DNA of 64,000 nt, taken from assembly GCF_001677475.2 (NCBI RefSeq), contig NZ_CP015229.1; one strand, 5' to 3'. This DNA comes from Escherichia coli. Its GTDB lineage: Bacteria; Pseudomonadota; Gammaproteobacteria; Enterobacterales; Enterobacteriaceae. Of this stretch, positions 51,807-52,538 are shown piece after piece. The stretch's first letter is position 1; every line of letters starts with the position of its first letter. The notes beneath the pieces were generated by a model, which saw only the letters and a list, made by a program, of their open reading frames with translations, searched no databases and was not told the origin of the DNA. The position numbers and the translations under genes were made by a program.

Positions 51807-51901
51807 GGAAGATCGTCGTCTCCGGTGAGGCGGCTGGACTTCAAATCCAGTTGGGGCCGCCAGCGGTCCCGGGCAGGTTCGACTCCTGTGATCTTCCGCC
51901 A
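51807..51901 (+). tRNA. selC: tRNA-Sec (selenocysteine, UCA anticodon)
   Basis: 95 nt GGAAGATCGTCGTCTCCGGTGAGGCGGCTGGACTTCAAATCCAG...GTTCGACTCCTGTGATCTTCCGCCA; long variable arm, 8 bp acceptor stem, CCA end. Confidence 0.95.
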
Positions 51902-52538
51902 AAATTCCTCTTCTGACGTTCTCCAATCCCTTGTAATACTGTCAATCCAGATATTTTCTACTGCTCAATATTCAATCGGCTTCAGGAATACCTGATCAAA
52001 GGTTTTGTGATGGACGATGAGCGACTGAAGAATCCGCCTGTCGGTTCTTCTGTCCTCGAACGCATCCGCGATATTCGCGCCAGCATGCGCCGTGTTTATT
52101 TGCAGGTGATTTGCCCCCCTGCTGACTCTCAGCCAACTGTATCGCCATTAAGCTGAAGATGTTGTTTTACTCGCCCCAGAACACCCTTTTTTATACGACT
52201 ATTCTATTTCTTTAACCGCTGGCGAAAAAAACTGACCTATAAACTTCACCAATAATCAGACTGCCATCAAGATTAATTTGTTCATTTAATATATCAAATC
52301 AACTTGTTTTATTTTTACTATCAAAAATAGCTCATTGCCTTAATATAATTAATATATAAATTCGGTAATTAATTCTTCACATGCTTTTGCTAATAATCTC
52401 AATTGCTGGCCCTGTAATATTGCGCTAGCATTGCTTTCTGGTTGTATCAGCGATACTCAAAAATTCTTAATACAATACTCATTCGACTGGTACTTATTTG
52501 TAACTCAGTTATATTTTGTCGCCCGGTGATTCAGAAGA

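Follow-up and report, generated by a model that had tools for sequence, protein, structure and literature searches.

The arrangement of this locus raises the question whether the T3SS-related genes found downstream of selC entered the chromosome at the tRNA gene, and what the short ORF lying behind selC represents. The DNA analysed is a stretch of 64,000 nucleotides from Escherichia coli (contig NZ_CP015229.1), referred to below as the window. We consider it very likely that the locus combines an empty selC site, a stump of the rhuM gene and a separate islet of eip genes inserted between yicS and nepI. The part closest to the tRNA gene contains the following features:

51807-51901, plus strand: selC, tRNA-Sec (UCA), from ARAGORN and Rfam RF01852; 95/95 bases identical to K-12 b3658.
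51878-51901, plus strand: 3′-terminal att core of selC, target of P4-family integrases, one copy only in the window.
51902-51978, plus strand: AT-rich stretch after the tRNA, 77 bp, 36% G+C, from composition and alignment.
51979-52156, plus strand: rhuM′ pseudogene fragment (K-12 yicT, b4653), from Pfam, BLASTP, DNA identity and the K-12 and PGAP annotations.
52157-52538, plus strand: AT-rich region upstream of setC, 382 bp, 32% G+C, collinear with K-12.

The only tRNA that ARAGORN detects in the window is this tRNA-Sec with anticodon TCA, and its membership of the family is confirmed by RF01852, for which its score of 83.8 bits exceeds the gathering score of 47. A comparison of the spacer downstream of selC with K-12 and with strains carrying islands at selC, as had been proposed earlier, showed that it is collinear with the former, and that at occupied E. 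coli sites a distal copy of 21-24 nt of the selC 3′ end lies directly upstream of rhuM′, beginning at the window equivalent of 51872-51880 (~51878). At the three occupied sites that we examined, the elements are P4-like and encode a primase-helicase together with defence genes of the retron or TIR-reverse-transcriptase kind. Searches of 51902-64000 by exact 11-mers, up to 5 substitutions, blastn-short and up to 5 edits including indels detected no second copy of the selC 3′ end in the window; as a positive control, the same search recovered the degenerate repeat of strain A26 described below. The att core is thus present once, and the integration site is therefore empty. The original prediction had seen no integrase beside selC, and indeed tblastn with seven selC-adjacent P4-type integrases from other species yielded no integrase or remnant in the window (best E = 0.33), nor does the selC-setC spacer contain an ORF of 60 or more amino acids. 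Integrase and distal direct repeat, the marks of a tRNA-integrated island, are accordingly both missing at selC in the window. The contiguous order selC-rhuM′-setC, as in the window and in K-12, is found in 3601 of 5426 complete E. coli genomes. A different outcome is seen in O157:H7 strain JEONG-1266, where the selC occupant deleted rhuM′ and most of setC, of which only a 3′ fragment is left upstream of yicL (retrieved locus 339-512, annotated 'MFS transporter, internal stop, missing N-terminus').

From selC to the ATG of setC (52539) the spacer measures 637 bp and has a G+C content of 38.1% versus 47.1% for the whole window, in good agreement with the ~640 bp of AT-rich DNA originally described. 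In most E. coli it is collinear and 97-99% identical, the divergence from K-12 being 1-3%. Only the first 15 bp of the stretch 51902-51978 are common to genomes with a full-length rhuM (blastn against A26, and alignment). Escherichia sp. MOD1-EC7003, which is 97.5% identical to the window, diverges 15 bp after selC. The setC promoter presumably lies within 52157-52538; a simple consensus scan of 51600-52700 detected neither promoters nor terminators. The tRNA-Sec was also the only structured RNA reported by Rfam in the spacer region at E values up to 1. The remaining part of the spacer, 51979-52156, consists of 178 bp with 52% G+C and contains the GC-richer 48-codon ORF noticed at 52010-52156.

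This ORF starts with an ATG at 52010 (alternatively a GTG at 52007), its stop codon ends at 52156, and its translation is that given in the original prediction. Upstream of the ATG the nearest in-frame stop codon is at 51914-51916, and translation from 51983 gives LQEYLIKGFVMDDERLKNPPVGSSV, followed by LERIRDIRASMRRVYLQV. Comparison with protein databases identified the fragment as a piece of RhuM. It matches Pfam PF13310 (Virulence_RhuM) with an E value of 6.3e-13 and 49 bits (cut-off 33.7), covering only positions 51-98 of the 252 in the profile, and it aligns by BLASTP (E 3e-24) with residues ~121-185 of the 345-aa RhuM of strain A26, with an in-frame gap of 8 codons. The ATG of the ORF corresponds to the internal Met133 of RhuM. 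The N-terminal 120 and C-terminal ~160 amino acids are absent and ~54 codons are left. At the DNA level, positions 51979-52047 share 98.6% identity with A26 rhuM over 69 bp, with weaker similarity continuing to 52135. Because of this 69 bp identity we regard the fragment as allelic with the intact rhuM, beyond mere homology.

It is clear that the fragment no longer qualifies as a full-length RhuM, both termini being gone, 8 internal codons deleted and the frame shifted in other strains. In a collinear genome PGAP labels it 'rhuM, incomplete, missing N-terminus and C-terminus', adding 'frameshifted' or 'internal stop' in further strains. In an alignment of nine genomes, four carry 1-bp deletions, which shift the frame at codon 17 in one case and rewrite the last 12 residues in the other three, and silent changes do not outnumber the replacements (R5L, I22M, R23H, R27C and S48R). 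Because of these frameshifts and replacements the 48-codon ORF is best read as a decaying pseudogene and not a gene. The original prediction had left the choice between a remnant and a small gene; Pfam, BLASTP and the frameshifts uphold the remnant, and the small gene was not confirmed. A genuine small gene, in the sense of a domesticated RhuM fragment giving rise to a micro-protein, possibly by read-through from selC, could draw on the uninterrupted frame of the window, TUM14771, K-12, OkiPb01713 and B7A, on a weak AAGG motif 7 nt ahead of the ATG and on the absence of a predicted terminator from the selC-ORF interval in the simple scan. However, a product altered or truncated by 1-bp deletions in four of nine genomes, an excess or parity of replacement over silent changes, the narrow coverage of the PF13310 profile and the classification as a pseudogene by both the K-12 curators and PGAP make this very unlikely. 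Still less weight, practically none, can be given to the idea that the spacer is plain ancestral intergenic DNA without any island history, whose likeness to RhuM is incidental. The collinearity and 97-99% identity of the spacer in most E. coli would be compatible with it, but not the Pfam match at E 6e-13, nor the 98.6% DNA identity with rhuM, which 844 genomes carry intact at this very place, flanked on one side by selC and on the other by a repeat derived from it. The ORF should thus be labelled in annotations as a rhuM/yicT pseudogene rather than as a small protein.

The 844 genomes, about 16% of the 5426, have the arrangement selC-rhuM-orf165-yicL and lack setC. In A26, which represents this haplotype, the full 345-aa RhuM is encoded directly after selC, and ~110 bp past its stop codon the selC 3′ end and its 3′ flank recur in direct orientation and degenerate form, CGACTCCTGTGAT----CGCCAAAATGCCTCT, with 28 of 32 bases matching around a 4-bp gap (E 3e-4). 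The A26 rhuM gene is thus contained in a 1.2-kb islet with selC on one side and an attR-like scar on the other, an arrangement typical of a former selC-integrated element, which would since have lost its integrase. Because the intact gene at the same site is bracketed by the selC-derived repeat, the rhuM′ of the window would be the stump of such an old element. The attR-like repeat is seen in the haplotype with the full-length rhuM and not in that of the window, and the truncation is the single feature suggesting that the full-length rhuM is ancestral and the rhuM′-setC arrangement derived. In the full-length haplotype the place of setC is taken by the 165-aa ORF (A26 retrieved locus 7862-8359; 33% G+C), for which Pfam, NCBIfam, PHROG and PADLOC gave no match. 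PADLOC PDC systems are predictions by association. The intact RhuM of A26 matches PDC-S05 with an E value of 2.8e-173, making it a candidate anti-phage gene, while PHROGs and NCBIfam contain no match to RhuM; the fragment in the window cannot be functional.

How far the variable DNA extends from selC can be judged from the genes that follow in the window:

52539-53723, plus strand: setC, MFS sugar efflux transporter, from RefSeq annotation of collinear genomes and NCBIfam TIGR00899.
53834-54757, plus strand: yicL, backbone, from RefSeq annotation; also near selC in Salmonella, Citrobacter and Siccibacter.
54761-55579, minus strand: nlpA, backbone, from RefSeq annotation and outgroup synteny.
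55789-56082, plus strand: yicS, divergent allele; the left junction of the islet lies at its stop codon.

We surveyed 80 Enterobacteriaceae species representatives retrieved via YicJ, 71 of which have selC beside yicJ. A SetC homologue near selC was found in none of the 80 loci, a set that came back without E. albertii, E. fergusonii and E. marmotae, such that the case for setC as cargo is built on more distant genera. Near selC in Salmonella, Citrobacter and Siccibacter are yicL, nlpA, yicS, nepI and yicN. Because this synteny includes the genes from yicL to yicN and no SetC, yicL and the genes beyond would be backbone, and rhuM′-setC would fill a variable slot between selC and yicL. The first sizeable ORF after selC, classified in 68 loci, encodes a P4-type integrase in 12, SIR2 in four, RhuM in three, TIR in three and a reverse transcriptase in two, the rest being AbiGi, PIN and others. 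The selC-proximal slot is therefore a hotspot for integrating elements and defence cargo in which an integrase is more often absent than present, 56 of the 68 species representatives having none next to selC. Six other species have RhuM no more than 10 kb downstream of selC, in two cases, in Klebsiella, as a fragment directly adjoining the tRNA.

The survey gave some further observations on the region around selC. Three Kluyvera representatives have two tRNA-Sec calls ~480 bp apart beside yicJ (ARAGORN; ~9137-9231 and 9618-9710 of the retrieved loci), which may reflect a duplicated selC or the long att repeat of an integrated element. Compared with Escherichia, Citrobacter and Salmonella, the yicL-nepI-yicN block beside selC is inverted in order and orientation in two Siccibacter loci, implying an ancient inversion, one end of which lay at the selC slot. 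Record CACSKA010000004.1, filed as 'Chryseobacterium sp. 18061', has the enterobacterial synteny yicJ-selC-nlpA-yicL-yicS-nepI, its proteins being 82-88% identical to those of E. coli (YicS 43%), and is probably contaminated or mislabelled.

A proposal that we hold tentatively, and which may well fail, is that setC survives as cargo of the ancient selC element that also left the rhuM stump, that the slot is dimorphic (rhuM′-setC in most genomes, rhuM with the 165-aa gene in ~16%) and that the eip islet moves by recombination in its flanks. Since setC is usually treated as a backbone gene, it would, if the proposal is true, turn out to be old island cargo.

The islet itself begins beyond the backbone genes and extends past the end of the window:

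56083-64000: left 7.9 kb of the eip/eilA islet ('selC-B'), from Pfam, the RefSeq annotation of TUM14771 and the literature.
56384-56881, plus strand: eicA, TPR_3 class-II chaperone (Pfam), SycD/LcrH chaperone in TUM14771.
56891-57073, plus strand: orf60, conserved 60-aa ORF between eicA and eipB, PGAP hypothetical protein WP_001024524.1, no Pfam match.
57129-58910, plus strand: eipB, SipB/SseC translocon protein (Pfam), YopB/SseC in TUM14771.
58923-60053, plus strand: eipC, hypothetical protein in TUM14771.
60097-61446, plus strand: eipD, T3SS_TC tip protein (Pfam), IpaD/SipD in TUM14771.
61649-63346, plus strand: eilA, HilA-like regulator with Trans_reg_C and TPR domains (Pfam).
63398-64000, minus strand: 3′ end of iatC/air/eaeX, invasin-like C-terminus (Pfam), cut by the end of the window.

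Homology with K-12 is unbroken from yicI to the stop codon of yicS (48585-56080) and ends there; the DNA beyond has a G+C content of 37.7% and encodes the T3SS-related Pfam domains, so that the island does start after yicS, as had been predicted. The 3′ end of selC and the first base of the islet, at the yicS stop codon (56080-56083), are 4.18 kb apart. Relative to K-12, the islet stands in place of 48 bp of the yicS-nepI spacer. The yicS-eicA junction is shared by 728 of the 5426 genomes, and the match of 4659 others breaks at the same base. The window is collinear with TUM14771 up to its end (95.7% identity over 12.4 kb). In this relative, iatC is followed by nepI and the full islet measures 16.6 kb, ending inside the last codons of nepI. 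Gene content and the position between yicS and nepI identify the islet as the eip/selC-B locus, iatC being represented in the window by its 3′ end only. Several E. coli, including TUM14771 (retrieved locus 22517-23177), have RelE/ParE toxin and HTH antitoxin genes between nepI and yicN that are absent in K-12 and A26; the pair is another small indel polymorphism, outside the window.

The original prediction also held that the island is close to selC without being integrated at the tRNA, and named a duplicated selC 3′ end at the far boundary as the finding that would speak against it. As that boundary lies outside the window, it was examined in TUM14771, where neither the 16.6-kb islet nor the 9 kb beyond contain a selC 3′ repeat with up to 5 edits; the window, as described above, has none either. 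A single selC-like match, on the opposite strand ~7 kb past the boundary in TUM14771, is at chance level (0.2 expected per 12 kb). The islet has no terminal direct or inverted repeats, the only repeats being twelve Big-domain units of 291 bp in iatC and short matches at chance level, and the 48-bp empty-site spacer of K-12 resembles the islet ends no more than by chance (about 17/37 identical). In the window's part of the islet tblastn with the seven integrases revealed no remnant. These sequence comparisons support the view that the T3SS islet is selC-proximal and not tRNA-integrated.

One could still imagine a single large selC island that spans the whole stretch up to the far end of the islet (rhuM′, setC, yicL, nlpA, yicS, eip, eilA and iatC) and whose integrase and attR have eroded. 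The lowish G+C content throughout (46% in setC, 43.5% in yicS, 38% in the islet) fits such a scenario, and rhuM′ does indicate that some selC-integrated DNA was present. However, yicL, nlpA, yicS, nepI and yicN must be counted as backbone because they accompany selC in Salmonella, Citrobacter and Siccibacter in the absence of eip genes, and in 4659 genomes yicS directly adjoins nepI, with the same junction and a clean empty site of 48 bp. Moreover, true selC islands leave their distal repeat upstream of rhuM′; the searches at the far boundary in TUM14771 and past it recovered no selC repeat, not even in degenerate form, and tblastn revealed no integrase remnant in the window. A single island thus appears highly improbable, and we retain the reading of an empty selC site with a rhuM stump and a separate eip islet.

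Next to the islet junction, the nlpA-yicS spacer together with yicS (55485-56082) is 12-19% divergent from K-12, as opposed to 1-3% in the neighbouring genes; for yicS itself the K-12 allele differs from that of the window by 17-19%. At least three allele classes of the region exist in E. coli (~97-99%, ~92-93% and ~84% identical to the window), arranged in blocks, yicS and the spacer before it being a hypervariable mosaic. The allele of the window is common to the islet-bearing genomes examined. Deeply divergent mosaic alleles at the junction are compatible with recombination in the flanks, although AHM8C160RI runs otherwise, since its yicS allele is of the islet type while its yicS-nepI site is empty. 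For the backbone of the window (gpmM-envC-waa cluster, ligB, spoT, recG, gltS, xanP, yicH, yicI and yicJ) the best identity among the 5426 E. coli genomes is 97.4-98.7%, so that the DNA would seem to come from a divergent Escherichia lineage.

What each part is, that the att site is empty, that the ORF is a pseudogene and where the junctions lie can be read directly from the sequence comparisons; the course of past events, setC as former cargo and the transfer of the islet by recombination have been inferred. Taken together, the locus is best explained as follows. The tRNA-Sec gene is intact, and its 3′ end is an integration site that is now unoccupied. An older selC-integrated element carrying rhuM would have eroded to a stump, rhuM losing both ends so that ~54 codons survive, as in K-12 and most E. 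coli. An internal Met of rhuM′ happens to open the 48-codon frame, probably with no selection acting on it. AT-rich DNA and setC would fill the variable slot between selC and yicL. The eicA-eipBCD-eilA-iatC islet is a separate insertion/deletion polymorphism between the convergent yicS and nepI, spreading and being lost, as we infer, by homologous recombination in the flanks and not by site-specific integration at the tRNA.

In practical terms, the T3SS islet should be labelled as the known eip/selC-B locus, accessory to ETT2 and regulated by EilA, and the selC site of this genome should be recorded as empty. An island described in the literature as being 'at selC' can sit 4 kb from the tRNA without any integration signature, and tRNA hotspots retain short gene stumps that record earlier occupants. 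Beyond correct annotation the significance is little.

The known integrase-bearing islands at selC include LEE, SHI-2 and PAI-I of strain 536. The window has the same att core, and the P4-like ones among the sites examined here have their distal repeat directly upstream of rhuM′-setC, but unlike these islands the window contains no integrase, second att copy or inserted DNA at the tRNA. SPI-3 of Salmonella carries mgtCB, misL and other genes as cargo. This selC island also includes rhuM (PMC3680342), and the window resembles it in having a RhuM-family gene derived from selC-integrated DNA, with the difference that only ~54 rhuM codons are kept. RhuM is likewise found beside or near selC in representatives of Enterobacter, Klebsiella, Phytobacter and Superficieibacter. 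With K-12 MG1655 (b3658, b4653, b3659-b3661 and b4555) the window shares the order selC-yicT-setC-yicL-nlpA-yicS, an identical selC and the same position of the pseudogene. In K-12, however, a stop codon interrupts the frame shortly before the internal ATG, at a point where the window stays open, and in place of the eip islet there is a yicS-nepI spacer of 48 bp.

A close parallel is provided by EAEC 042 and ST69, for which Fox et al. 2020 (PMC7058095) state that 'three backbone genes intervene (setC, yicL, nlpA)' before selC-B, an island comprising eipB, eipX, eipD, eicA, eilA and eaeX. As in the window, selC-B (eicA, eipB/C/D, eilA and eaeX/air/iatC) lies beyond setC, yicL and nlpA, and not at the tRNA. 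According to the 042 genome paper (PMC2808357), the eip cluster is an insertion beside selC, and the selC layout of EAEC 042 goes back to Ren et al. 2004 and Sheikh et al. 2006, as summarized in PMC7058095. EAEC 042 differs from the window in having the phage-like selC-A at the tRNA, bounded by a 21-bp direct selC repeat (PMC7058095) that agrees with the 21-24-nt repeat seen at occupied sites; selC-A is absent from the window. The layout of the locus is thus already known from EAEC 042 and ST69, and the ORF is yicT of K-12. To this the present analysis adds that the stump is allelic with an att-bracketed intact rhuM in ~16% of E. coli, that RhuM is a PADLOC candidate and that setC may be old cargo.
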